Assembly: GCA_947487155.1 (NCBI GenBank)
Contig: CANKVS010000007.1
Location: forward strand, 17,020-81,019
Origin: an uncultured Flaviramulus sp.
GTDB lineage: Bacteria > Bacteroidota > Bacteroidia > Flavobacteriales > Flavobacteriaceae
Length of the DNA stretch: 64,000 bases
Direction: 5' to 3'
Shown: one piece after another, positions 27,559 to 41,513 of the stretch
Position numbering within the stretch: the first letter of the stretch is position 1
Layout: every line of letters begins with the position of its first letter
Notes under the pieces: model-generated
Database searches by the model: none
Told to the model about the DNA's origin: nothing
Seen by the model: only the letters and a program-made list of their open reading frames with translations
Made by a program: the position numbers and the translations under genes

Positions 27559-29970
27559 ATGCAAAAACCTAACATTACACTTACCCTATTTTTATTAGTA
27601 TCGTTAATCGTAAAATCGCAAAACACCTCAACGGTTTTTCCAGGAGCTGATGAAAAAACGCCAGCCAAAGCACAATACTTTTCTTGGATAAACAATACTA
27701 ATGAAGGCACTACAGAAGAGCACACCTTAATCAATTTTAACTTTTTTAAATGGCTAAAAAACGAGTACGGTATGCAACTAGATATTTATGCTTTTGATGC
27801 CGGTGCTATAGATGGTAGGCTTTTTTATGGTAGTATGAACTCCAATAGGTTTAAAACTCAATTTCCTAATGGGTTCGATCCCATACATAAAGAAGCAAAA
27901 AATATAGGGTTTACATTAGGTTTATGGGGAGGTCCGGATGGTTTTGGTAACACTCCAAAAGAAGAAAAAGCCAGAACAGATATGATGGTTAAATTAGTAA
28001 GAGATTACGATTTTAACCTATTTAAATTCGATCAAGTTTGTGGGCAATTACGACCCGAAAAAGAAGATGCTTTTATAAATATGATGATTGAAGCACGTAA
28101 ACACAGACCAGATCTTATTTTATTAAATCATAGATTAGCATTAACCGAAAAAGGCTTACCGCACGCTACTACCTTTTTGTGGGAAGGCGTAGAAACCTAT
28201 GTAGATGGGCATATAAAAAACGATAGAACAGCAACGCATCATCGTGTTGGTAATTTACTTCGTGGTTATACCCCTGGTATGAAACGTTTAACCGAAGACC
28301 ACGGCGTATGTCTCTCATCGTGTTTAGATTATTGGGAAGACGATTTAATTCTTCAGGCGTTTCATAGAAATTTAATTCTAGCCCCAGAAATATACGGAAA
28401 CCCCTGGTTATTAAGAGATGACGAATATTCAAAACTGGCAAGAATTTTCAATCTTCATAAGCAATATAGAGATATTATAGTTGAAGGTATTAAACTGCCA
28501 GAAGCTCAATATGGTATGCATGCCATTTCTAGAGGAGACAATAATACCCGATTATTGGTTTTAAAAAACCTGTCGTGGCAACCTATTACCTATCAAATAG
28601 ATTTAAACGAAAGTATTGGTTTACTAGCCTCTAATAACGCTGTAGAAGTTAAACAATATCACCCTTTTGAACAGGTTATTGGTAACTTTAAATACGGAAA
28701 CAAAACAACAGTAACCGTTTTACCATTTAGGTCTTGTTTGGTTAAAGTTTCTAATACAAACAATCACGATTTAAGCTTACTAGGTACAAATTATGAAGTG
28801 GTTAAAAATATTGAAGGACAACCTGTAGAAATTAATGTTTTAGGTTACTCTGGAACCACCTCTAGTATAAAATTAAATGATTTTAGTACATTCAAATCGG
28901 CTAAAGTTGATGATAAAAATGTATCAAGATTACTAAAAGGAAAATGGTTAAAAGTAAATTTTGAAGGTGAAAAATTAAATCGGTTTTGGCATAGAAAATT
29001 AACCGATTTAAAACCTGTTGATTTCCCTACTGATGCAGAAGCCTTATACGAAACCACTTGTTACGCTGCAAATAGTAATGCTTTTGAGGTGCGTTCGCTA
29101 TTCCGTTCTGGCGAGACCAAAATACCACAAGTAAAAGCGGCCAGAGATGCGTTTTTTAATCAAAAAACATTTGTAGATAGAGGAGTTTGGGATAAAAATT
29201 TATTTGATAACAATTATAGCACGTCTTTTTACGTAGGTAAGCATCGCGATAAAGTTGTAAAAATTAAAAAAGCGGCTTTTAGGTTAGATTTTGGTGAACC
29301 TATTTTTATCGACAAACTAAATATTACATCTCCAGACACCTATTCGTTTATGCCAAGAAACGTTGAAGAAGCTATTATTGCCGAAGTGTCTTCAGATTTA
29401 AAAACTTGGAAAAAAGTTATTTTTATGGGCAACCTTAAAATGAGCTTAGATTTATCAAATAGCGGTAAAATACGCTATGTAAGAATTACAGACTTTGCAG
29501 ATAGATTGTCTGAAGTTTCGGGGTATTATAAAGGCAAAAAACTAGATGCTTCAAAATGGAAAGCTTCTAATTTATTGGGGAATTATAAAGAAATGAATTT
29601 TGATAAAGCTTTTTCAGGATTATTTACTATAAATGAAATGCATAAAAACAGTTATTTAGCTGTGGCATTAAATGGATATCATGGCAAAGAAGGGGCTTAT
29701 GCGGCTTTACGTGTTGATGGCAAAATTATTGGCGCGCCAGACAGAAGTATTTCTTACCCGTCTAACTCTTGGGAAGCTGCTGTATGCGATAAATGTATTT
29801 TCGATAAAAATTTCACGTATTACTTTCCAGTGACTAAAGACATGATTGGAAAAACAGTTGAAGTGGTTGTTTTAGGAACTGCCGATTGCGATCCAAATTT
29901 AAAAAATGAAGTTTGGATTACCAGTTACCCTATTCCTTTTCAAAAAAAGAAATTGGTGTTAACACCTTAA
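27559..29970 (+). CDS. Large secreted protein, possibly a glycoside-hydrolase-like domain plus a C-terminal discoidin/F5-8-type-C-like domain, inserted between sufS and sufE.
   Basis: 803 aa with a signal peptide. Family not recognised with confidence. Confidence 0.5.
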   Translation: MQKPNITLTLFLLVSLIVKSQNTSTVFPGADEKTPAKAQYFSWINNTNEGTTEEHTLINFNFFKWLKNEYGMQLDIYAFDAGAIDGRLFYGSMNSNRFKTQFPNGFDPIHKEAKNIGFTLGLWGGPDGFGNTPKEEKARTDMMVKLVRDYDFNLFKFDQVCGQLRPEKEDAFINMMIEARKHRPDLILLNHRLALTEKGLPHATTFLWEGVETYVDGHIKNDRTATHHRVGNLLRGYTPGMKRLTEDHGVCLSSCLDYWEDDLILQAFHRNLILAPEIYGNPWLLRDDEYSKLARIFNLHKQYRDIIVEGIKLPEAQYGMHAISRGDNNTRLLVLKNLSWQPITYQIDLNESIGLLASNNAVEVKQYHPFEQVIGNFKYGNKTTVTVLPFRSCLVKVSNTNNHDLSLLGTNYEVVKNIEGQPVEINVLGYSGTTSSIKLNDFSTFKSAKVDDKNVSRLLKGKWLKVNFEGEKLNRFWHRKLTDLKPVDFPTDAEALYETTCYAANSNAFEVRSLFRSGETKIPQVKAARDAFFNQKTFVDRGVWDKNLFDNNYSTSFYVGKHRDKVVKIKKAAFRLDFGEPIFIDKLNITSPDTYSFMPRNVEEAIIAEVSSDLKTWKKVIFMGNLKMSLDLSNSGKIRYVRITDFADRLSEVSGYYKGKKLDASKWKASNLLGNYKEMNFDKAFSGLFTINEMHKNSYLAVALNGYHGKEGAYAALRVDGKIIGAPDRSISYPSNSWEAAVCDKCIFDKNFTYYFPVTKDMIGKTVEVVVLGTADCDPNLKNEVWITSYPIPFQKKKLVLTP

Positions 29971-30034: not shown

Positions 30035-30475
30035 TTGCATAAAATTGTAACTGTGAGTATTGAAGACATACAAAACGAAATAATTGACGAATTCTCAATG
30101 TTTGAAGATTGGGAAGAACGCTACCAATATATGATTGATTTAGGTAAAGATTTACCTTTAATTAACGACCAATATAAAACCGACGATAATATTATTAAAG
30201 GTTGCCAAAGTAAAGTTTGGGTTCATGCCGAAATGCAAGACAATAAAATTGAATTTACTGCCGATAGTGATGCCATAATTACTAAAGGCATTATTGCTAT
30301 ATTAATCCGAACGTTTTCAAATCAGCATCCAAAAGATATTATTAATGCAGATACTGGTTTTATTGATAAAATAGGGTTAAAAGAACATTTGTCGCCAACA
30401 CGCGCCAACGGTTTGCTAAGTATGGTAAAACAACTTAAAATGTATGCTATAGCATACCAAACGCAATTGAATTGA
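30035..30475 (+). CDS. sufE: Cysteine desulfuration protein SufE. The true start is probably a few codons inside the ORF-track start, which is a TTG.
   Basis: SufE fold with the conserved Cys in KGCQSKVW; about 140 aa. Confidence 0.8.
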   Translation: MHKIVTVSIEDIQNEIIDEFSMFEDWEERYQYMIDLGKDLPLINDQYKTDDNIIKGCQSKVWVHAEMQDNKIEFTADSDAIITKGIIAILIRTFSNQHPKDIINADTGFIDKIGLKEHLSPTRANGLLSMVKQLKMYAIAYQTQLN

Positions 30476-30592: not shown

Positions 30593-30919
30593 ATGAATGA
30601 AACAACTATAGATACAAACGCTCTAGGCGAGAAAATAGTAAACGTTTTAAAAACGATTTACGATCCAGAAATCCCCGTAGACATCTACGAATTAGGATTA
30701 ATTTACGATGTATTTGTAAATGAAGATTACGATGTAAAAATATTAATGACTTTAACAACTCCTAACTGTCCTGTGGCCGAAACATTGCCTTTAGAAGTTG
30801 AAGAAAAAGTAAAATCGCTTAACGATGTAAAAAGTGCCGAAGTAGAAATTACTTTCGATCCACCTTGGACACAAGATTTAATGAGTGAAGAAGCAAAGTT
30901 GGAATTGGGGATGCTTTAA
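30593..30919 (+). CDS. DUF59 / MIP18-family Fe-S assembly protein (SufT-like).
   Basis: 108 aa with the conserved TTPNCP Cys motif of the family. It is the last suf-related gene. Confidence 0.75.
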   Translation: MNETTIDTNALGEKIVNVLKTIYDPEIPVDIYELGLIYDVFVNEDYDVKILMTLTTPNCPVAETLPLEVEEKVKSLNDVKSAEVEITFDPPWTQDLMSEEAKLELGML

Positions 30920-31788: not shown

Positions 31789-32715
31789 ATGAAAAAACTA
31801 TTATTATTATGTGTATTTTTTGTTGGGATAATCTCAATAAACGCACAAACTAAAGAGGAATTACAAACTCAAAAAGCAGAAAAACAAGCTGCTGCCGATG
31901 CTTTACAAGCAGAAGCAAACGCAATACAAGCTAAAATTGATGCCTTACCAGGTTGGAGAATAGGTGCTTTTGGTACCATTGGTGGAAGTTTATCGAATTT
32001 TAATAACTGGTATGCACAAGGTGCACCTAATAACTCATCTGGTAATATTGGTTTTACTTTAAACGCTTATGCTAACCAAATTCAAGAAAAATATTTTTGG
32101 AGAAATAGCTTAACCACAAACTTAAATTGGGTAAAGTTAGATAATAAAGATATTAGTACAGATGATGATAGCTTTAACCCAACTACTGATGTTTTTAATA
32201 TCTCATCTTTATACGGTAGAAATATTAATAAAACATTAGCTATTTCTGGTTTAATGGAATATAGAACAACCTTATTAGATAATTTTAACGATCCTGGATA
32301 CTTAGATATAGGTGTTGGAGCTACATGGACTCCTATACAAGATTTAATAGTTGTTATACATCCTTTAAACTATAACTTTGTGTTTAGCAGCGGAGATACC
32401 GTTTTTGAATCTTCTTTGGGAGCAAAAATTGTAGCAGATTATACAAAGCAAATAGGAGCTATTAATTTTAAAACAAACTTATCTATGTTCCAAAGTTATA
32501 AATCTTCAAATTTATCTAACTGGACTTGGACAAACTCCTTTGGGTACACCTTATGGAAAATGATTGGTGTTGGTTTCGATTTTGGTTTAAGAAGCAACAA
32601 ACAAGAAGCTTTAAATTATGCACTAGCTCAAACACCTGTTATTGCAACGTCTTTTGATGATGTAGACAACGATTTACAAACCTACTACACCATAGGCTTA
32701 AGCTATAAGTTTTAA
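31789..32715 (+). CDS. Secreted protein with an N-terminal coiled coil and a C-terminal predicted outer-membrane beta-barrel (DUF3078-like).
   Basis: Signal peptide, alternating hydrophobic beta-strand pattern, and a terminal LSYKF aromatic end. Confidence 0.55.
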   Translation: MKKLLLLCVFFVGIISINAQTKEELQTQKAEKQAAADALQAEANAIQAKIDALPGWRIGAFGTIGGSLSNFNNWYAQGAPNNSSGNIGFTLNAYANQIQEKYFWRNSLTTNLNWVKLDNKDISTDDDSFNPTTDVFNISSLYGRNINKTLAISGLMEYRTTLLDNFNDPGYLDIGVGATWTPIQDLIVVIHPLNYNFVFSSGDTVFESSLGAKIVADYTKQIGAINFKTNLSMFQSYKSSNLSNWTWTNSFGYTLWKMIGVGFDFGLRSNKQEALNYALAQTPVIATSFDDVDNDLQTYYTIGLSYKF

Positions 32716-32900
32716 AGTAAAATAAAACGATTTTTTATATAAAAGCATTTCTTAAAAGAAGTGCTTTTTTTTTGACTAATACCATTTCTCATCTGAAATG
32801 ACTGTAATAAATCGCACTTTTCTCCTTTCTATTTCAACATAAAAAGAAACCGTAACTTAGGCTATACTCTATTTTTCTGTTTTCTATAAAGAAAAAAATC

Positions 32901-32942
32901 ATCAATTTCTTTTACAGTAATTTCAAACAAGAAATGGTATAA
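32901..32942. repeat. 42-bp conserved element, copy B (atcaatttcttttacagtaatttcaaacaagaaatggtataa).
   Basis: 40 of 42 nt identical to 20981-21022. It lies in the 380-bp AT-rich leader of the 33096-40289 operon. Confidence 0.7.
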
Positions 32943-33095
32943 AATGTAATCTACTGTAATTTAAATCATAATTAACAATGATATAAAATTCTTTCAAATT
33001 TTATAATAAAATACACTTTATCTATTTTTTTTGTATTTTAACGATTATTTTTAATATATTGCCCTCTTAAAATGACTATTTAATACAAATGCATT

Positions 33096-33461
33096 ATGGT
33101 TAAAAAGAAAATTGTTTTAGCAGAAGACAACTCAACCTTATCATTGCTACTAAAGTTTAGATTAGAAAAAGAAGGTTATAATCTATTTGCCGCAGTAGAT
33201 GGAAAAGAAGCACTTCAATTAATAGAAGCAGAAGAACCTGATTTAATAATAACAGACATTATGATGCCTTTTATTAGTGGTTTAGAAGTGATTAGTCATG
33301 TAAGATTAAAATTTGATTTAGACACACCTATTATTGTATTCTCTTCTGCAGGTCAAGAAGAAATGGTATTAAAAGCCTTTAATTTAGGAGCCAATGATTT
33401 TATGGGAAAACCATTTAGCCCAAACGAATTAATAATTAGAGTTAAAAGGTTATTAAATTAA
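33096..33461 (+). CDS. Stand-alone response-regulator receiver (CheY-like REC only).
   Basis: 121 aa with a phospho-acceptor Asp in LIITDIMMP and the conserved acidic pocket and Lys (FMGKPF). Confidence 0.8.
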   Translation: MVKKKIVLAEDNSTLSLLLKFRLEKEGYNLFAAVDGKEALQLIEAEEPDLIITDIMMPFISGLEVISHVRLKFDLDTPIIVFSSAGQEEMVLKAFNLGANDFMGKPFSPNELIIRVKRLLN

Positions 33462-33467
33462 TATGGC

Positions 33468-34571
33468 ATGATTATTAATAACGGTATATTAGAATATATA
33501 GAAAAATTTCCTTTTCTAGTTCAGTTAGCTTATATATTAAGCTGTGTTCTTTTTACTGCCATTATTGTTCTTACTATATATTTAAAAATTATACGATCGT
33601 CTCTTAGGAAAAAACATGAAATACGTGTAAAGTTAAAGGCTGACTATGAGGCGTTATTAATTGAATATCTTTACTCTGGTGATGAAACTAATGAAATTAG
33701 TGAAATACAAGAACTAATAATTAATAAGTTAAAAAAAGTTATTCATTCCAAGTTTAATCGTAAAATTATAATATCTATTATATACAATTTAATGAATGAG
33801 GTCTCTGGAGAAATGTCAGATTCTATAAAAACATTATACTTTAAAACAGGGCTTTACAATTATGCACAAAACAGGTTAAAAAATAAAAACTGGTATATTA
33901 TTGCTAAAGGAATAGGTGAATTAACACGATTTAAAATAGGTGAAGCTCATGATGACGTTGCTAAATTTATAACACATCAAAGGAGCGAAGTTCGTAAAGA
34001 AACTCAATTATATTTAGTAAACTTATTCCGATTTAACGGGTTAACATTTCTTAATGATTTAAAAACACCACTATCAGAATGGGCTCAAGTACAATTATTA
34101 GAAACACTACAAAAGTTTGATGATCAACAAATTTGCGATATAAAACCTTGGCTAAAATCTTCAAACAATACAGTGGTTTTATTTGCCTTAAAATTAGCTC
34201 AAATTTATAATCAGTTTGAAGTTAAAGACACTTTAATAGAACTATTATCGCATAACGAAAAAACCATCAGGCTCCAAGTAATAGAAGTATTAACACACTT
34301 ATATGGCATTGAAGCTAAAGAAATGCTTAAAGCTAACTTTAACAATTTAAGTTTAGAAGAACAAATTAGCTTCTTTGGCTTACTAGAAAAGCTAGTGGTT
34401 CCATCTGACGAGCCTTTTGTTGAAAAACATTTATTTCATAAAAACTTCGAAATACAGCTATTAGCACTTAAAATATTAAAATCTATAAACCTAGATAAAT
34501 TCATGGGCTTAAATAAAAAAGTTTCTAAGAAAAGTAATCCTGAAATTTTCAAATTTGTAAAAAACATATAA
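33468..34571 (+). CDS. Membrane-anchored HEAT/ARM-like repeat protein.
   Basis: One N-terminal TM helix followed by repeated about 30-aa helical units (..EVRKETQLYLVNL.., ..EKTIRLQVIEVLTHL.., ..NFEIQLLALKILKSI..). It is 7 bp from the RR gene and 3 bp before the GT2 gene. Confidence 0.55.
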   Translation: MIINNGILEYIEKFPFLVQLAYILSCVLFTAIIVLTIYLKIIRSSLRKKHEIRVKLKADYEALLIEYLYSGDETNEISEIQELIINKLKKVIHSKFNRKIIISIIYNLMNEVSGEMSDSIKTLYFKTGLYNYAQNRLKNKNWYIIAKGIGELTRFKIGEAHDDVAKFITHQRSEVRKETQLYLVNLFRFNGLTFLNDLKTPLSEWAQVQLLETLQKFDDQQICDIKPWLKSSNNTVVLFALKLAQIYNQFEVKDTLIELLSHNEKTIRLQVIEVLTHLYGIEAKEMLKANFNNLSLEEQISFFGLLEKLVVPSDEPFVEKHLFHKNFEIQLLALKILKSINLDKFMGLNKKVSKKSNPEIFKFVKNI

Positions 34572-34574
34572 ATT

Positions 34575-36005
34575 ATGGATACTAGTACGCTTCAAATAAT
34601 TTTAAAAATTCTCCATTACATATTTTTTGCATATGCTTTTTTTGCTATTACATCTTATATAGTACTTTCTGTTATTTCTGGAAAAGAAACTCTAGAATAT
34701 CTTAAAAAAAATAGTTTTGTAAACTACAAAGATATTTTATCATCTACCATGTCTCCATCAATAACCATTATAGCTCCCGCATATAATGAAAGCCTTAATG
34801 TTGTTGAAAATGTGAGGTCTCTACTATCTAATCACTATGTAAACTACAAAGTAATTATTATTAACGACGGTAGTACAGATGATAGTTTAGAAAAACTAAT
34901 TGCTACTTACGACTTAGAGGCAATCGATTTTATTATAAATAATAAAATTAAAACAAAACCACTACGTACAGGTGTTTTTAAATCTAAAAACCCTGCTTTT
35001 GAAAAACTTATGGTGGTTGATAAAGAAAATGGCGGAAAAGCAGATGCACTAAATATGGGGTTAAATATTAGCAAAACTAAGTACGTTGCTTGTATTGATG
35101 TAGATTGCCTGCTTTTGGAAGATGCTTTACAAAAAATGATAAAACCTTTTTTAGAAGTAACCAATGCCAAAGTAATTGCTGCTGGTGGTGTTATTAGAAT
35201 AGCAAACTCTTGTATTATACGTGGTGGTAAATTAATAGATGTAAATCTGCCAAAAAACTTATTAGTTCAAGCACAAATTTTAGAATATTTAAGAGCTTTT
35301 TTATTAGGAAGAATGGCATGGAGCAGATTAAACGGTTTACTTGTAATTTCTGGAGCCTTTGGTATTTTAGATAAAGAAACTGCTATTGCAGTTGGAGGAT
35401 ATGACACTGAAACCGTTGGAGAAGACATGGAAATTATTGTGAGAATGAGACGCTATATGGAAGAAAAAGGAGAAAAATACAGAGTCTCTTACATTCCTGA
35501 TCCTTTATGTTGGACTGAAGCCCCAGACACTTACAAAATTTTTATATCACAACGAAACAGATGGACTAGAGGTACTATAGAAACTTTAAATAAACACAGG
35601 AAAATAGGGTTTAACAGAAATTATGGAACCTTCGGGTTATTAAGTTATCCGTATTGGTTAATTTTTGAAAGACTAGCTCCTTTAATTGAAGCTGTTGGCT
35701 TAGTGTACTTTATCATTTTAGTAGCTTTAAGAGAGGTTAAGTGGGAATATGCTTTATCATTCTTAATATTAGCATACATGTTTTCTGTACTGTTCTCTAT
35801 TGTTGCTATATATTCAGAAGAACTTACATTTCATCAATACAAAAAGAAAGGCACAGGTTTTAAATTAATTTTATTAAGTGCCTTAGAGCCTTTTATATTA
35901 CACCCTTTTATATTATATGCTGCTGTAAAAGGGAATTACGATTACTATTTTAACAGGAAAAAGAAATGGGGATCTATGGTGCGAAAAGGCTTAACTACTA
36001 CTTAA
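34575..36005 (+). CDS. Family-2 processive beta-glycosyltransferase (PgaC/IcaA/NodC/cellulose-synthase-like polysaccharide synthase).
   Basis: N-terminal TM segment, a GT-A core with DGSTDDS and CIDVDC (DxD), and the processive-synthase signature QRNRWTRG (QxxRW). There are 4 C-terminal TM helices and no PilZ domain. Confidence 0.8.
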   Translation: MDTSTLQIILKILHYIFFAYAFFAITSYIVLSVISGKETLEYLKKNSFVNYKDILSSTMSPSITIIAPAYNESLNVVENVRSLLSNHYVNYKVIIINDGSTDDSLEKLIATYDLEAIDFIINNKIKTKPLRTGVFKSKNPAFEKLMVVDKENGGKADALNMGLNISKTKYVACIDVDCLLLEDALQKMIKPFLEVTNAKVIAAGGVIRIANSCIIRGGKLIDVNLPKNLLVQAQILEYLRAFLLGRMAWSRLNGLLVISGAFGILDKETAIAVGGYDTETVGEDMEIIVRMRRYMEEKGEKYRVSYIPDPLCWTEAPDTYKIFISQRNRWTRGTIETLNKHRKIGFNRNYGTFGLLSYPYWLIFERLAPLIEAVGLVYFIILVALREVKWEYALSFLILAYMFSVLFSIVAIYSEELTFHQYKKKGTGFKLILLSALEPFILHPFILYAAVKGNYDYYFNRKKKWGSMVRKGLTTT

Positions 36006-36030
36006 CAAAAAATGACTTAATTAATAATAC

Positions 36031-38448
36031 ATGAAACTTAATTTTAAAAATATTGATGCTTTTATTTATTTATGTGCGATCGCATCTTTAATTGTTGTTT
36101 TTTGGTTAATTGGACTGACTGAAGTCTTTCTATCAAAATCCTATACAACCAATATAATTGGAGCCCTATTTTTAAAATTCACAAACGATTTTTGGGCATG
36201 TTTTTTAATAGGTTTAACCGTTTTTCCTTTGTATTTACTTTTACATATTTTTATAAAAAAATATGCTTTTACAATAATAAGAATCCTTTTTATATTCATT
36301 ATACTCGCTCAATTTTCACTAGTAAAGTATAGTATTACCACGATGTTAAATTTAGGTGCAGATATTTTAGGCTATTCGTTTGATGATGCCTTTAGTACAG
36401 TTTCAGTATCAGAATCTATTTCTTTTACTTATTTTCTACCTTTTATAATTTTTCCATTATTATTCTTTGTATTCTATGCTCTGTTAAAAAACCGTTTATC
36501 TACAAATAAATTAAAAGGAGTAAGTTTAATTATTATACTCTTTTTTGGAAGTATTAAATTAATTTTCTCAAATACTTTTGAAGCAAAACATCAAAACAAA
36601 ATTGTTTTTTTTGTCGATAATATCATTGCTTTTCAAAATGAAAAAAGCCAATTAAATGCATTTAATTTTTCACAACGTAGCGATTACCCGTTATTAAAAC
36701 CTTATAATCAATCAAAAGATGTATTATCCTCATTTATTAATACGAAAGACGAAAAACCAAATATTGTTGTAATAGTAGTTGAAGGTTTAGGTGGTGAGTT
36801 TGTAAACAACAATGCTTTTAGCGGTTTTACGCCGTATATAGATTCTATTATACCCCATGCCTTATATTGGGATAATTTTGTAAGTACTACAGGGCGATCT
36901 TTTGGAATACTACCATCATTATTTGGTTCCCTACCATACGGTGAAAAAGGGTTTTTGGAGTTAACAGACACACCTTCTCACGCATCCTTAATAAGTGTTT
37001 TAAAAGCCAATGGATATCAAACCAATTATTACTCTGGAGGACCATCTAGCTTTGACAGAAAAATTAATTTCTTAGAGTATAACGGCATTGATAATTTAAT
37101 AGACGAAAATAAATACGGTCCTAGTTATACAAAAACGGCAAGTAACGATGGTGGGTTTTCTTGGGGATATCCAGATAGTGAAATTTTTAAAAAAGCCTTT
37201 TCTTCTTTAAATGTTGAAAAACAACCCAGACTCGATATTGTAATGACACTGTCTTCTCACGAGCCTTTTGAATATCCAAATAAGGAAGTTTACATGGATG
37301 AAGTTGAAAAACGACTCGAAAACTTAGATAAATCGGAAGCATTAGAAAATAAAATTGAAAATCATAAAGATATTTTTGGTTGTTTATTATTTACAGATAA
37401 TGCCATTAAAAATTTTATGGAGGACTATAAAAAAAGACCCGATTATTCAAATACCATTTTTATAATTACTGGAGATCACAGACTTATTCCTATTGAACAA
37501 AAAGATAAGTTATGCAGGTTTCACGTTCCGTTTTTAATTTACAGTCCCTTATTAAAAACATCAGAAAAGTTTAAGTCAATTTCATCTCATTGGGATGTAA
37601 CCCCTAGTGTATTACGTTTTTTAACAAACAATTACAAGTTTAAACCCATAGAAAATACCGCTTGGATGGGTAGTGGCTTAGACACTGTAAAACAATTTAG
37701 AAACGTTAAAAAAATACCTTTAATGCGGTACAAAGGAAATATAAATGATTTTATTTATGAAAACTATTTTTATTCTGATGGAGAATTATTCAAAATAAAT
37801 GAGAATTTTGGAACTTATAAAGTACATGAAGATGGTCTTTTAAAAACCATTTCAGATTCTTTAATGGCTTTTAAAAAAATGAATGCCTATGTTACACAAC
37901 ACAACAAAATTTTTCCAGATTCACTTAATATTTATATAACACCAAAAACTAAATTTTCTAAAGAACAATTAGCAGAGATTAGCCAATATTCAAAAGAAAA
38001 AACATTTGATGAATTATTGTTAACAGCTAGAGATTTGTCTCAAAAAAAACAATATGATACTACACGTTTATTATGCGACTATATTTTAAATGAGTTTCCA
38101 AATTACACAGATGCTAGAATACTAAAAGGAAGAACTTTAGCTTGGGAACAAAATTATAGAGAATCTGAATCTGTTTTATTAAACGCTCTTAAAAGATCTC
38201 CTTATTATGATGATGCTTATTTGGCGATTTTAGATATGTATTGGTGGTCTGGTCAAGAAAAAAAATCTATAAGCATTTTTAATCAAGCTATTAATAATGA
38301 CTTAACAAATCCTGAAATAAGTTTTAAAATGGCTAAAGCTTACAACCGAATGAATCGTATTAATACATCTAAAAAAATAGTAGATAGCTTAATTAAAATC
38401 TATCCAAATGTCTCTGAATATAAAACTTTTAAAAAAGCCTTAAAATAG
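36031..38448 (+). CDS. Polytopic membrane alkaline-phosphatase-superfamily transferase (LtaS/OpgB/BcsG/EptA-like sulfatase fold) fused to C-terminal TPR repeats.
   Basis: About 5 N-terminal TM helices, then a sulfatase-type core (PNIVVIVVEGLGGEF ... TTGRS ... ITGDHR), then about 170 aa of TPR-like helices. Confidence 0.7.
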   Translation: MKLNFKNIDAFIYLCAIASLIVVFWLIGLTEVFLSKSYTTNIIGALFLKFTNDFWACFLIGLTVFPLYLLLHIFIKKYAFTIIRILFIFIILAQFSLVKYSITTMLNLGADILGYSFDDAFSTVSVSESISFTYFLPFIIFPLLFFVFYALLKNRLSTNKLKGVSLIIILFFGSIKLIFSNTFEAKHQNKIVFFVDNIIAFQNEKSQLNAFNFSQRSDYPLLKPYNQSKDVLSSFINTKDEKPNIVVIVVEGLGGEFVNNNAFSGFTPYIDSIIPHALYWDNFVSTTGRSFGILPSLFGSLPYGEKGFLELTDTPSHASLISVLKANGYQTNYYSGGPSSFDRKINFLEYNGIDNLIDENKYGPSYTKTASNDGGFSWGYPDSEIFKKAFSSLNVEKQPRLDIVMTLSSHEPFEYPNKEVYMDEVEKRLENLDKSEALENKIENHKDIFGCLLFTDNAIKNFMEDYKKRPDYSNTIFIITGDHRLIPIEQKDKLCRFHVPFLIYSPLLKTSEKFKSISSHWDVTPSVLRFLTNNYKFKPIENTAWMGSGLDTVKQFRNVKKIPLMRYKGNINDFIYENYFYSDGELFKINENFGTYKVHEDGLLKTISDSLMAFKKMNAYVTQHNKIFPDSLNIYITPKTKFSKEQLAEISQYSKEKTFDELLLTARDLSQKKQYDTTRLLCDYILNEFPNYTDARILKGRTLAWEQNYRESESVLLNALKRSPYYDDAYLAILDMYWWSGQEKKSISIFNQAINNDLTNPEISFKMAKAYNRMNRINTSKKIVDSLIKIYPNVSEYKTFKKALK

Positions 38449-38463
38449 GTAACCAAATATATT

Positions 38464-39714
38464 ATGCGCAAATCAATTTTAATATTGTTTTTAATAAGTT
38501 CTTTTTCTTATGCTCAAACAAAAGTGTTTAATGGAGACCCCGACAAAGCTTTTGAGGTTGCCCGCAAATTAGCATTTAATAAACAACGCAAACAAGCTCA
38601 AGATTCTTTATTACTAATTCTAACAAAATATCCAGATTATCATGATATAAGATCCTTTTTGGCAAGCACTTATTCTTGGGATGGTGATTATAAAAAAGCA
38701 AAAAAAGAATTTGATTATATACTTAAAAAAAGCCCTAAACGATTAGATACTTGGCAAGCTGCTATTAAAAACGAACTATGGAGAACAGCAGCTTTTAGTG
38801 CTTTAGAAATGAGTGATAAAGCCTTAAAATATTTTCCAAAAAATCCAGACATCTTGTATTTAAAAGCAAGTGCTGAAGACGCTACAGATAACCATGAAGA
38901 AGCTTTATTAACCATTAATAAAATATTAAAAGACAATCCAGATCATGAAAAAACAAAAGCTTACAAAGCTAGTTTAATAGATAAGTTAAGCCTTAACACT
39001 ATAGGACTAAAAGCTTCGGTTGATATTTATTCTGAAGTATTCGACCCCATGCAGTATTATTTATTAAAGTACGTTAGAAATACAAAATATGGTAGTATTC
39101 ATAGTAAAATTAACTTTAGTAGAAGGTTTGCATCTAATGGCGCTCAATTCGAAATTGATATGTATCCTCGAATAGCAAAAGGCTTATATGCATATATGAA
39201 CTTTGGAGTATCTAATTCCTTTTTATATCCAGATATAAGATATGGTGCAGAGTTACACAAATCGTTACCAAAAAGTTTCGAAGCCTCTCTTGGATTTAGA
39301 GCTTTAAAATATAGTAGTGGGATTACTAATATTTATACTGGTTCTGTAGGATGGTATAGCGGAAATAGTTATTGGTCTTTTAGAGTTTATGTAACCCCAG
39401 GAGAACCTGCTGCAAGTAAATCGGGGACATTAAGTTATAGAAAATACAGAAGAGATGCTAACAATTATTTTAGTATAGATGCTGGTATGGGGTTTTCTCC
39501 AGACATTTATAGGTTTGATTTTGAAAACAATGAAGATTCAATTATAAATCTTAATTCTCAAAAATTCAATCTAGGCTATTATTTTTCATCTAAAAACAAT
39601 AAAAACTATTGGGGAATTCAATCAGGAATTTCACATCAAGAAATTAGTTTTAACCCTGGTTCATACTTCTGGATTTATTCCTTTTCATTATCTTGGGACA
39701 TGAAATTTAGATAA
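38464..39714 (+). CDS. TPR-repeat plus outer-membrane beta-barrel protein (PgaA/BcsC/PelB-like exporter, short form).
   Basis: Signal peptide, about 170 aa of TPR, then about 230 aa with alternating aromatic/hydrophobic beta-strand periodicity ending ...SWDMKFR. Confidence 0.6.
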   Translation: MRKSILILFLISSFSYAQTKVFNGDPDKAFEVARKLAFNKQRKQAQDSLLLILTKYPDYHDIRSFLASTYSWDGDYKKAKKEFDYILKKSPKRLDTWQAAIKNELWRTAAFSALEMSDKALKYFPKNPDILYLKASAEDATDNHEEALLTINKILKDNPDHEKTKAYKASLIDKLSLNTIGLKASVDIYSEVFDPMQYYLLKYVRNTKYGSIHSKINFSRRFASNGAQFEIDMYPRIAKGLYAYMNFGVSNSFLYPDIRYGAELHKSLPKSFEASLGFRALKYSSGITNIYTGSVGWYSGNSYWSFRVYVTPGEPAASKSGTLSYRKYRRDANNYFSIDAGMGFSPDIYRFDFENNEDSIINLNSQKFNLGYYFSSKNNKNYWGIQSGISHQEISFNPGSYFWIYSFSLSWDMKFR

Positions 39715-39734
39715 TACGCTATTAGTTAAATTAA

Positions 39735-40289
39735 ATGAATCAAAAACTTAAAACATCCATAGCATTTGCTAAAAATTTATTGGTTACTGGAGCCATATCT
39801 GAAACTAGTAGACAAGTTGAAATTGATATTTGTAAAAACATTTCAAAAGAAGAAAATAAAATTATTGTCGAATTTGGAATGGGACATGGTAATATCACTA
39901 AAGAAATATTAAATACCATAGCTCCAACATCAAAATTATATGCTTTTGAAGTAAAGGAAAGTTTTTGCAATCACGTTAAAAGTATTATTTCAGACGATAG
40001 ACTTATTATTATTAATGATGGGGCCCAAAACTTAAAAAAACATATACAGCAAGATATAAATACTGTAATATCTTCAATTCCATTTTCTTTCTTTAGCAAA
40101 GAAAAAGGTTTGGCTATTATACAAGACGCTTACGATCTTTTAGAGAATAATGCATACTATAGCCAAGTTTTATATACTAAATTCAATTTTAAAAAGTTTC
40201 AAAAAATATTTGAGGAATGCGAAATGACTTCAAACAAAAACTTGTTTACAGAATATATTTATCATTGTAAAAAAACAGCTAATACATAG
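39735..40289 (+). CDS. Small class-I SAM-dependent methyltransferase of the KsgA/Erm/PmtA-like family.
   Basis: The N-terminal ...NLLVTGAISETSRQVEIDI... plus motif I IIVEFGMGHGNITKEIL resembles the rRNA adenine dimethylase/PmtA fold. It is only 184 aa. Confidence 0.55.
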   Translation: MNQKLKTSIAFAKNLLVTGAISETSRQVEIDICKNISKEENKIIVEFGMGHGNITKEILNTIAPTSKLYAFEVKESFCNHVKSIISDDRLIIINDGAQNLKKHIQQDINTVISSIPFSFFSKEKGLAIIQDAYDLLENNAYYSQVLYTKFNFKKFQKIFEECEMTSNKNLFTEYIYHCKKTANT

Positions 40290-40295
40290 GCGGTT

Positions 40296-41513
40296 TTACT
40301 TCATATCCTCATAATTATAATCTGGATATAAAAAATGATTATACGGGAATCGGGTAACATGAATTTCCCTAACCTCATCGTAAACACGTTTTTTAAAATC
40401 TTCTAAATTCTGTTTATTTAAGGCCGAAATAAACAAGGCATTATTACCAACTTTACTCATCCAAGTTCTTTTCCATTCTTCAAGACTGTAATTGGCTCCA
40501 ATACGTTCTGCTATCAAATCGGTCTCATCAAAAGGTTCTGCTTGGTAAGCATCAATTTTATTAAACACCATAATAGTTGGTTTATCACCACTTTTTATTT
40601 CACCTAAAATCTTTTCTACAGAAGCAATGTGTTCTTCAAAATTAGGGTGCGAAATATCAACAACATGCAACAATAAATCGGCTTCCCTAACTTCGTCTAA
40701 GGTGCTTTTAAAACTATCAACCAATTGTGTGGGAAGCTTTCTAATAAAACCAACAGTATCACTTAATAAAAATGGTAAATTCTGAATAACTACTTTTCTA
40801 ACTGTGGTATCTAATGTTGCAAACAACTTATTTTCAGCAAATACCTCACTTTTGCTAACAACATTCATAAGAGTAGATTTTCCAACATTTGTATAACCTA
40901 CAAGTGCTACACGAACCATTTTACCACGATTACCACGTTGCACCGCCATTTGCTTGTCAATTGTTTTTATGCGGTCTTTTAACAGCGCAATTTTATCGCG
41001 TACTATACGTCTATCTGTTTCAATTTCGGTTTCTCCTGGTCCACGCATTCCAATACCTCCTTTTTGACGTTCGAGGTGCGTCCACATACCTCTTAATCGT
41101 GGTAATAAGTATTGGCATTGCGCTAATTCTACCTGTGTTCTAGCATAACTGGTTTGCGCTCGTTGTGCAAAAATATCGAGTATTAAATTCGTTCTATCTA
41201 AGACTTTACAATCAAGAATTTTACTAATATTACGTTCTTGTGCTGCCGATAATTCATCATCAAAAATAGCTGTACCTATATCATTATTTTCAATAAACTG
41301 GCGCACATCTTCCATTTTCCCTGTTCCAATAAAAGTTTTAGGATTAGGCATATCCATTTTTTGAGTAAAACGCTTTATGGCATATCCGCCTGCTGTAAAC
41401 GTTAAAAACTCCAACTCATCCAAATACTCTTTAGATTTTACTTCATCTTGATCTTTAGTAATAATCCCAATCAAAACGGCTCTTTCTAAAGCGATGTCTT
41501 TCTTTTCTATCAT
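40296..41513 (-). CDS. hflX: GTPase HflX.
   Basis: G1 GYTNVGKST, G3 DTVG, G4 NKID motifs and an HflX N-terminal domain; 405 aa. Confidence 0.9.
   Translation of the reverse strand: MIEKKDIALERAVLIGIITKDQDEVKSKEYLDELEFLTFTAGGYAIKRFTQKMDMPNPKTFIGTGKMEDVRQFIENNDIGTAIFDDELSAAQERNISKILDCKVLDRTNLILDIFAQRAQTSYARTQVELAQCQYLLPRLRGMWTHLERQKGGIGMRGPGETEIETDRRIVRDKIALLKDRIKTIDKQMAVQRGNRGKMVRVALVGYTNVGKSTLMNVVSKSEVFAENKLFATLDTTVRKVVIQNLPFLLSDTVGFIRKLPTQLVDSFKSTLDEVREADLLLHVVDISHPNFEEHIASVEKILGEIKSGDKPTIMVFNKIDAYQAEPFDETDLIAERIGANYSLEEWKRTWMSKVGNNALFISALNKQNLEDFKKRVYDEVREIHVTRFPYNHFLYPDYNYEDMK

Follow-up and report, generated by a model that had tools for sequence, protein, structure and literature searches.

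Synthase-dependent polysaccharide systems, such as Pga, Bcs, Pel, alginate and Nfr, are recognized by an inner-membrane glycosyltransferase of family 2 (GT2) carrying the motifs D, DxD, (T/G)ED and Q(Q/R)xRW together with its own transmembrane (TM) helices, by a periplasmic scaffold of tetratricopeptide repeats (TPR) with an outer-membrane barrel, and by a receptor for cyclic di-GMP (c-di-GMP), be it PilZ, a PelD-type protein, the PgaC–PgaD interface or MshEN. PgaABCD of Escherichia coli combines the GT2 PgaC and its small TM partner PgaD with a periplasmic modifying enzyme and the TPR-barrel PgaA, and is activated by c-di-GMP at the PgaC–PgaD interface. In Bcs, export proceeds through the TPR-barrel BcsC, and BcsG, a membrane-anchored enzyme of the alkaline phosphatase superfamily, moves a phospholipid headgroup to the nascent polysaccharide in the periplasm. 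Enzymes of the LtaS/OpgB (MdoB) type possess five TM helices and an extracytoplasmic domain with the metal and nucleophile residues E, T/S, H and D-H, and OpgB decorates glucan with phosphoglycerol taken from phosphatidylglycerol. NfrBA of E. coli, a recently recognized synthase-dependent system, pairs a GT2 synthase with an outer-membrane protein that contains TPRs. Here we analyse a cassette of six genes (g1 to g6) in a 64,000-nucleotide stretch of contig CANKVS010000007.1 from an uncultured Flaviramulus sp. (this whole stretch is called the window below), which resembles each of these systems in part and, judged by its sequence, appears to be a real, widespread and uncharacterized polysaccharide system of the synthase-dependent type in Flavobacteriaceae and related Bacteroidota.

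Products of the cassette

The six open reading frames (ORFs) lie on the plus strand and follow each other with gaps of 6, 3, 25, 15 and 20 bp in the ORF list. Both the coordinates and the tight packing (gaps of 3–25 bp) given in a preliminary description, made from the sequence alone, proved exact, and all its domain assignments were borne out.

33096–33461, plus strand: g1, a REC-only response regulator of 121 amino acids (aa) (Pfam Response_reg, 3.9e-27)
33468–34571, plus strand: g2, a membrane-anchored HEAT/ARM alpha-solenoid of 367 aa (hydropathy, AF2 model)
34575–36005, plus strand: g3, a membrane GT2 synthase of 476 aa (Pfam, NCBIfam, motifs)
36031–38448, plus strand: g4, an LtaS-family transferase of the alkaline phosphatase superfamily with TPR, 805 aa (Pfam, PDB profile)
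38464–39714, plus strand: g5, a secreted TPR protein with a YaiO-family outer-membrane barrel, 416 aa (Pfam PF19413, model)
39735–40289, plus strand: g6, a small class I methyltransferase dependent on S-adenosylmethionine (SAM), PmtA/OlsG-like, 184 aa (NCBIfam)

No product reaches a curated orthologue threshold of the Pga, Bcs, Pel, alginate or Nfr systems, nor one of LtaS, OpgB or PmtA. No description of the cassette was found in the searchable literature, and all exopolysaccharide clusters of Flavobacterium detected in a 2025 preprint were of uncharacterized types.

Pfam analysis of g3 revealed matches to Glycos_transf_2, Glyco_tranf_2_3, Glyco_trans_2_3 and Chitin_synth_2, the last two of which cover QRNRW and the hydrophobic segments after it. 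The best curated match was PgaC/IcaA (TIGR03937; 1.3e-37, 129.7 bits against a cutoff of 422.3), and g3 shares 27.6% identity over 283 aa with E. coli PgaC. The motifs D98, D175xD177, S259-G-A-F, G-E283-D284 and Q326-R-N-R-W-T-R-G, which comprise the whole set expected of an inner-membrane synthase, are invariant in 78 of 78 orthologues, and hydropathy placed hydrophobic segments at about residues 8–32, 345–365, 367–385, 394–412 and 429–447, one being N-terminal and three to four C-terminal. By sequence, g3 would thus bear the hallmarks of processive membrane synthases and have its nearest counterparts among PgaC/IcaA-type enzymes, not among the transferases of lipopolysaccharide or capsule, which agrees with the processive QxxRW synthase devoid of PilZ that had been proposed. 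None of the six products matched PilZ, GGDEF, EAL or MshEN at E<=0.01 (Pfam, NCBIfam), nor was any other c-di-GMP receptor of the known types recognized, although a cryptic site is possible. Sequence and profile searches of the PDB with g3 returned only local GT-A matches (chondroitin synthase; BcsA at 25 bits), suggesting that no close solved relative exists, and an exact-sequence look-up of the window GT2 returned no record.

The product of g5 begins with a type I signal peptide (aa 1–18) without a lipobox Cys, and is thus no unrelated lipoprotein. Its AlphaFold model (predicted local distance difference test, pLDDT, 82.4) showed nine TPR helices at aa 26–175 (nucleotides (nt) 38539–38988) and 14 beta strands at aa 178–415 (nt 38995–39708), so that the TPR plus outer-membrane barrel protein that had been predicted is a real, 14-stranded barrel preceded by a periplasmic scaffold. 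Over the whole barrel, g5 scores above the curated thresholds of the YaiO family, both for PF19413 (1.6e-62, 211 bits against 23.9) and for TIGR04390 (2.4e-56, 191.3 against 32); its pairwise BLASTP comparison with E. coli YaiO was not significant, and family membership rests on profile HMMs. Structural likenesses of the barrel were found to CymA, OmpG and Omp33, the oligosaccharide channels CymA and OmpG being most similar, and PgaA, BcsC and AlgE were not among the top 60 structural matches. The likeness to Pga, Bcs and alginate porins drawn earlier therefore holds for the TPR-barrel arrangement and not for the barrel itself, which belongs to a family unlike the known exporters.

In g4, five TM segments (aa 11–179, nt 36061–36567; hydropathy) are followed by an extracytoplasmic catalytic domain (aa 243–529, nt 36757–37617; Pfam Sulfatase, 7.7e-32) and a C-terminal TPR module (aa 651–805, nt 37981–38445; Pfam TPR_19), the latter homologous over its full length to the TPR of g5 (aa 20–176; E 2e-11). 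A profile of 17 g4 orthologues found VP1736 (3LXQ, 2.8e-23) first in the PDB, then LtaS of Bacillus subtilis (7e-14), and also LtaP and LtaS of Listeria and LtaS of Staphylococcus aureus. Residues E251, S290, H410 and D482-H483 of g4 align with E255, T300, H416 and D475-H476 of LtaS and are kept in 70–71 of 71 sequences, position 290 being Thr in 62 and Ser in nine of them, the window included among the latter. A role as sulfatase was considered and rejected, as g4 lacks the C/S-x-P-x-R motif (it has S-x-x-G-R-[TS]) and aligns to the LtaS catalytic residues. The BcsG Pfam family did not match g4 at E<=0.01, and g4 lies far below the equivalog cutoffs of LtaS (NF053595; 35.8 bits against 970) and OpgB (PRK12363; 39.5 against 572). 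By fold and catalytic site g4 would then be a phosphotransferase of the LtaS/OpgB type, a five-TM protein with the Glu/Thr-nucleophile/His/Asp-His site (Ser at the nucleophile in the window), probably neither an orthologue of these enzymes nor a homologue of BcsG. Of the BcsG/LtaS-like headgroup transferase proposed earlier, the LtaS half is upheld by the profiles, whereas the analogy to phosphoethanolamine cellulose is functional only.

The product of g6 has neither a TM segment nor a signal peptide and should be cytoplasmic. As had been predicted from its likeness to KsgA and PmtA, it is a class I methyltransferase, whose two best matches both fall far below threshold, with 48.6 bits for OlsG (cutoff 350; 7.6e-13) and 39.1 bits for PmtA (cutoff 250; 5e-10); its SAM-binding motif E46-x-G-x-G-x-G is kept in nine of nine orthologues.

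When set beside the described systems, the cassette differs from each of them. It shares with Pga an inner-membrane GT2 with a TM partner, a periplasmic modifying enzyme and a TPR-barrel, but contains neither a PgaB-type deacetylase/hydrolase nor PgaD, the partner being the 367-aa HEAT protein; the score of g3 noted above falls short of a PgaC orthologue, g5 reaches only 23.4 bits against 366.65 for PgaA (TIGR03939), and this with its TPR part only, and in place of c-di-GMP control the cassette family encodes a REC/Hpt relay. Bcs is resembled in concept by the membrane-anchored transferase and by TPR-barrel export, yet the catalytic domain of g4 aligns with LtaS, LtaP and VP1736 and not with BcsG, g3 has no PilZ and only the local 25-bit match to BcsA (34–36 bits with CelA/BcsA models, against cutoffs of 699–992), and BcsB, BcsZ, BcsE and BcsF are absent. 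Unlike LtaS and OpgB, g4 has a C-terminal TPR homologous to that of the barrel protein and sits in a synthase/exporter operon. With NfrBA no BLASTP similarity was detected at E<=0.01, either between g3 and NfrB, which is annotated as c-di-GMP-activated, or between g5 and NfrA. We know of no counterpart to the HEAT partner and the REC protein in the Pga, Bcs, Pel, alginate or Nfr systems.

The only other context examined in which a YaiO barrel lies beside a Glyco_trans_2_3-type membrane GT2 and modifying enzymes is that of E. coli K-12 (L081, NC_000913.3 380069–384616), where yaiS, yaiP, yaiX and yaiO are arranged head to tail on one strand. They encode, respectively, a member of the PIG-L N-acetylglucosamine (GlcNAc) deacetylase family, a membrane GT2 with EDLD and RRWRRW, an acyltransferase split by IS2, and the barrel. 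In contrast to g5, YaiO (257 aa) has no TPR; YaiP is 25% identical to g3 in the N-terminal half only, and no REC, HEAT or LtaS-like gene is present. From its sequence, yaiSPXO looks like a cryptic, uncharacterized synthase-type polysaccharide cluster, and the yaiO literature found concerned PCR-marker use only.

Conservation and variants of the cassette

With one genome scanned per species, at least 566 marine and freshwater species were confirmed to carry the GT2 gene, and the 80 best loci were compared by tblastn and ORF clustering. All 80 belong to Flavobacteriaceae (Flavivirga, Algibacter, Confluentibacter, Lutibacter, Flavobacterium, Tenacibaculum, Polaribacter and Wenyingzhuangia). Genes g1–g5 retain both their order and their strand in 67 of them, with median gaps of 22, 2, 20 and −1 bp, and most of the remaining 13 loci are contig ends. 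As the next commonest neighbour cluster was present in just 33 loci, the synteny of g1–g5 is not due to chance. The flanking genes differ between genera. Because at least five different upstream/downstream contexts were found, the five genes seem to move as a unit. The expectation that all six genes travel together thus held strongly for g1–g5 but not for g6, which was found in only nine of the 80 loci and is an accessory, not a core, gene. Identity to the window across genera was 67–89% for GT2, 66–89% for REC, 48–84% for the barrel, 48–76% for g4 and 38–78% for HEAT, with lower values in Wenyingzhuangia (L079: 58, 54, 34, 36 and 30%, respectively). The occurrence in at least 566 species and the high GT2 identity (67–90%) in nearly all loci suggest an important and strongly constrained function.

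A profile search with the HEAT protein yielded 1175 representative clusters at E<=1e-10, many of them 700–1200 aa long. A fusion of HEAT and GT2 was rejected, as the long matches (N-terminal 350 residues) hold only more HEAT repeats and no GT2 domain, a separate GT2 gene adjoining them. REC, HEAT, GT2 and TPR/YaiO are kept in distant variants with a GT2 identity of 47–56%, including reordered ones (HEAT lengths in aa in brackets; HK, histidine kinase):

L082: REC-HEAT(855)-GT2
L083, Zobellia alginiliquefaciens: Hpt-REC-HEAT(962)-GT2-Sulfatase-TPR/YaiO
L084: hybrid HK-REC, then REC-HEAT(1196)-GT2
L090: HK-REC-Hpt, then REC-HEAT(988)-GT2-Sulfatase-YaiO
L085 (6911–13235) and L086: REC-TPR/YaiO-CotH-LysM+HEAT(588)-GT2, reordered
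L089 (3939–13507), a metagenome-assembled genome (MAG) of Bacteroidota: CotH-?-Hpt-REC-TPR/YaiO-HEAT(692)-GT2

The HEAT partner of L085 and L086 carries two LysM domains N-terminal to its TM helix, as would suit an N-terminus in the periplasm with affinity for peptidoglycan or a glycan containing GlcNAc. The CotH-family protein of L089 carries a sorting tail of the type IX secretion system.

In seven Flavobacterium loci (L030, L035, L037, L042, L046, L048 and L049; e.g. L048:15361–21422), a second tandem cassette, HEAT-GT2-TPR/YaiO-DUF4838, directly follows the first. It is diverged from the first, with 45% identity in GT2, 23% in HEAT and 25% in the barrel, and does not bring a REC or LtaS-like gene with it. 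Such pairs imply that a duplication took place long ago and that HEAT/GT2/YaiO triads form a family, probably with different polymers as products. The LtaS-like gene is also absent from L063, L074 and the L085 and L089 variants, and absent or disrupted in L042 and L066; it is dispensable to the system. The invariant core is HEAT, GT2 and TPR/YaiO, nearly always with REC, to which the LtaS-like enzyme, CotH, DUF4838, LysM and the methyltransferase are added as interchangeable accessories. Four weak hints point to a beta-glycan with GlcNAc as the polymer: g3 is similar to PgaC/IcaA and Chitin_synth_2, one HEAT variant bears LysM on its periplasmic side, the second cassette encodes the glycosidase-like DUF4838, and a PIG-L deacetylase gene adjoins E. 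coli yaiO.

Where present, g6 (METHYLTRANSFERASE) follows g5 in six loci, lies between g4 and g5 in Lutibacter L034 and L038, and is 5 kb off in L015. Residue 290 of g4 is Ser in eight of ten g6-positive loci, the window counted (the window, L001–L003, L006, L007, L010 and L038), as opposed to one of 61 without g6, kinship being uncorrected in these counts. Furthermore, residue 409, next to H410, is Ser or Thr in all seven g6-positive members of the window clade and Asn elsewhere. In the g4 tree the g6-linked genes of the window clade form one lineage apart from the g6-less ones, whereas the GT2 tree interleaves both, and Lutibacter L038 combines a T-to-S change at position 290 with a g6 in another place, both of independent origin. 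Three loci do not follow the pattern: L015 and L034 have g6 and Thr290, and L077 has Ser290 and no g6 seen. The link between g6 and the cassette is probably not accidental, and it is suggestive of a PmtA-like g6 that alters the lipid donor of the matching g4 subtype, although this co-variation rests on only about two independent events. That g6 modifies the donor headgroup itself we consider improbable on this evidence.

Some single loci deserve mention. A gene on the minus strand with a faint signal of the glycerophosphodiester phosphodiesterase (GDPD) family (L083:18021–19319) is convergent to the end of the Zobellia cassette and was not seen in L090; provided that the signal is real, its product might cleave off glycerol-phosphate substituents. 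A contig binned as 'Chlorobiota bacterium' (L011) carries REC-HEAT-GT2 with 85% GT2 identity to the window and is most likely mis-binned.

Proposed control by a receiver protein and its HEAT partner

The Response_reg match of g1 spans residues 6–116 of its 121 aa, no other domain being present (Pfam), and the phospho-acceptor pocket E10, D11, D54, S83 and K105 is kept in 74–75 of 75 orthologues. The gene directly upstream of REC on the same strand encodes a hybrid kinase, PAS-PAS-HisKA-HATPase-REC-Hpt, in 17 of the 80 loci and a stand-alone Hpt in seven, including the nearest relatives of the window, and in nine further loci a divergently oriented Hpt lies upstream. In all, an Hpt or hybrid kinase adjoins REC in 33 of 75 loci and in the four distant variants L083, L084, L089 and L090. 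These neighbours lend independent support to the suggestion, made in the preliminary description, of a phosphorelay in place of c-di-GMP and PilZ. With an intact pocket, no output domain and, family-wide, a cognate kinase or Hpt, g1 probably serves as the terminal receiver of a multistep phosphorelay. A receiver that lacks an output domain would have to act by protein contact, for which the constant neighbours g2 and g3 are the obvious candidates. Bacteroidetes are regarded as poor in c-di-GMP signalling, a view for which we found nothing citable.

Hydropathy of g2 indicated one TM helix at about aa 17–41 after a short N-terminus, followed by a Lys/Arg-rich stretch; because of this stretch (positive-inside rule) the solenoid is predicted to be cytoplasmic. 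The Pfam match to HEAT_2 is weak and sub-threshold, and an AlphaFold model built from 42 homologues (pLDDT 85.5) showed a long helix at residues 16–69 and then an alpha-solenoid of about 17 helices. In the 80 loci and the distant variants examined, the HEAT gene always adjoins the GT2 gene. We think it plausible, at slightly less than even chances, that g2 is a signal adaptor, and control by a phosphorelay through g1 appears to us moderately likely from these sequences.

Alternatively, REC might regulate something else or be a phosphate sink, with HEAT as a structural scaffold in assembly or localization and the synthase constitutive or under transcriptional control only. The window itself, with no cognate kinase or Hpt nearby, and the second tandem cassettes, which do without a REC of their own, are in keeping with such an arrangement. 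However, the cassette begins with REC in 75 of 80 loci, at a median of 22 bp from HEAT, REC is kept in the reordered variants, and its cross-genus identity of 66–89% is similar to that of GT2 and far above that of HEAT, so that we assign this alternative a low probability and prefer contact of g1 with g2 or g3.

In the window, a gap of 380 bp (32716–33095), AT-rich and with a longest ORF of at most 26 aa in the ORF scan, separates g1 from a DUF3078 gene upstream (31789–32715; signal peptide; Pfam 8.1e-15), which ends in the following structure:

32741–32768, plus strand: terminator-like hairpin with a 12-bp stem, three GC pairs and a T run, after which 330 bp of AT-rich sequence remain before g1

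This hairpin would mark the 5' boundary of the cassette transcription unit. In the nearest relatives L001–L003 and L006, a 122-aa Hpt gene stands between DUF3078 and REC where the window has only this gap; L004, L005, L007 and L044 are likewise without an Hpt or kinase next to REC, and the Hpt gene appears to have been lost or relocated in part of the window's clade. The DUF3078 gene lies directly upstream in the window and its close relatives, and also upstream of the reordered, distantly related L085 variant (L085:5800–6759; 25% identity); its recurrence may be a coincidence or denote an extra outer-membrane component. At the other end, a convergent gene for an HflX-type GTPase (40296–41513) abuts g6. 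The flanks consist of housekeeping genes, namely those for SufE, an Fe-S assembly protein and DUF2480 at one end and for an EEP-family protein and a metallophosphoesterase at the other. An ORF of 803 aa (27559–29970) with a signal-like N-terminus and no Pfam family at E<=1e-4 is found upstream of the SufE (30035–30475) and Fe-S assembly (30593–30919) genes. The G+C content of the cassette (27–30%, compared with 30–35% in the surroundings) is not markedly anomalous.

Proposed mechanism and its alternatives

Taken together, we consider it quite probable from these data that the core of the cassette makes and exports a polysaccharide, and we rather favour a combined model of a trans-envelope machine, specific to Flavobacteriaceae and related Bacteroidota, for polysaccharide synthesis, decoration and export under a phosphorelay. 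The data show gene content, motifs, fold models and synteny; the identity of the polymer, the direction of transport, the chemistry of decoration and the gating by REC and HEAT we infer. In the combined model, the PgaC-like processive g3 would polymerize a nucleotide sugar at the cytoplasmic face and thread the chain through its own TM helices. Its obligate partner g2, the positional analogue of PgaD, would contribute an extra TM helix and a cytoplasmic HEAT docking surface. D54 of g1 would be phosphorylated by the hybrid kinase/Hpt relay, and through protein contacts with g2, g3 or both, g1 would then turn the synthase on or off, thereby replacing the c-di-GMP receptors of Pga, Bcs, Pel, Alg and Nfr. 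In the periplasm, g4, anchored by its five TM segments, would attach to the growing chain a phospho-headgroup taken from a membrane phospholipid, either glycerol-phosphate, in line with the homology to LtaS and OpgB, or phosphoethanolamine, in line with the lipids of flavobacteria; for such a transfer to the polymer, the chances seem to us about even on the sequence evidence. The C-terminal TPR of g4 would pair with that of g5, bridging the periplasm and guiding the chain to the 14-stranded YaiO exit, and g6, where present, would serve as an accessory methyltransferase that goes with a particular subtype of g4.

A fuller reading, which we put forward tentatively and consider rather unlikely as a whole, is that of polymer synthases gated directly by the hybrid kinase, Hpt and g1 via the HEAT partner, with an LtaS-like decoration that is TPR-coupled to a new class of exporter barrel and, in the window subtype, an N-methylated headgroup. 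In this subtype, g6 together with the g4 changes T290S and N409S/T would lead to, for example, methylated phosphoethanolamine or phosphocholine.

Several points weigh against the combined model. The nearest structural relatives of the g5 barrel are uptake channels, known exporter barrels have 16–18 strands and not 14, and we know of no YaiO-family member that has been shown to export anything. No glycoside hydrolase, lyase or deacetylase gene is present in the cassette, whereas most known synthase-dependent systems have one. LtaS enzymes use phosphatidylglycerol, which is not the major flavobacterial phospholipid. Neither a kinase or Hpt nor a decayed remnant of one was found beside g1 in the window by tblastn and ORF scan, and Foldseek of the g2 model returned only designed or generic HEAT/ARM repeats, the adaptor role being deduced from position alone. 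Finally, one observation that speaks for the modification step is uncertain. One MAG locus (L033:10001–13891, Flavobacteria bacterium RIFCSPLOWO2_12_FULL_35_11) contains GT2 and the LtaS-like/TPR protein as a single in-frame ORF of 1296 aa; the junction was read directly, and its topology fits g3 ending and g4 starting in the cytoplasm, but the fusion may be either genuine or a sequencing or assembly error at the stop codon.

The product might instead be an envelope polymer retained by the cell, either a poly(glycerol-phosphate) like lipoteichoic acid (LTA), made by g4 on a glycolipid or glycan primer supplied by g3, or a glucan of the osmoregulated periplasmic type, located in the periplasm or attached to the outer membrane and decorated by g4. 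The closest solved relatives of g4 are indeed true LtaS polymerases and the LtaP primase, and OpgB, a decorator of periplasmic glucans, matches it as well; no hydrolase or lyase for release is encoded, and the faint GDPD-family gene adjoins the Zobellia cassette. On the other hand, g4 is dispensable in several loci in which GT2, HEAT and the TPR-barrel are always kept, the TPR-barrel and the homologous TPR of g4 are hard to fit with a periplasmic product, and the GT2 has the motifs of processive synthases, LTA primer glycosyltransferases being of a different type. We therefore regard a retained polymer as having little probability, and still prefer a secreted one. We find it very improbable that the cassette is a module for sensing, uptake or envelope remodelling, in which the barrel serves uptake and the product of the GT2 is a short oligosaccharide or a lipid-linked sugar, since likeness among 14-stranded barrels says little on transport direction, a YaiO barrel and a membrane GT2 are paired in E. 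coli too, QRNRW and GED with four to five TM segments are typical of processive synthases, and in its N-terminal TPR the barrel protein resembles PgaA, BcsC and PelB.

If the combined model is true, the cassette would add one more type to the short list of synthase-dependent systems, and a function would for the first time be assigned to YaiO barrels, the cryptic E. coli cluster yaiSPXO included. It would likewise mean that secreted polysaccharides of Gram-negative bacteria are decorated by LtaS-type enzymes. Furthermore, it would be the first case of a phosphorelay, not c-di-GMP, gating such a synthase via a dedicated adaptor, and hence a c-di-GMP-independent answer to the control problem that is solved elsewhere by PilZ, PelD and PgaD. 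Flavobacteriaceae are among the main organisms that settle on and break down algal and particulate organic matter in marine and freshwater habitats, and several of them, in Tenacibaculum and Flavobacterium, are fish pathogens, yet to our knowledge matrix building and attachment are poorly understood in this family. For work on biofilms and particle attachment in tractable flavobacteria, the cassette provides clear genetic targets.

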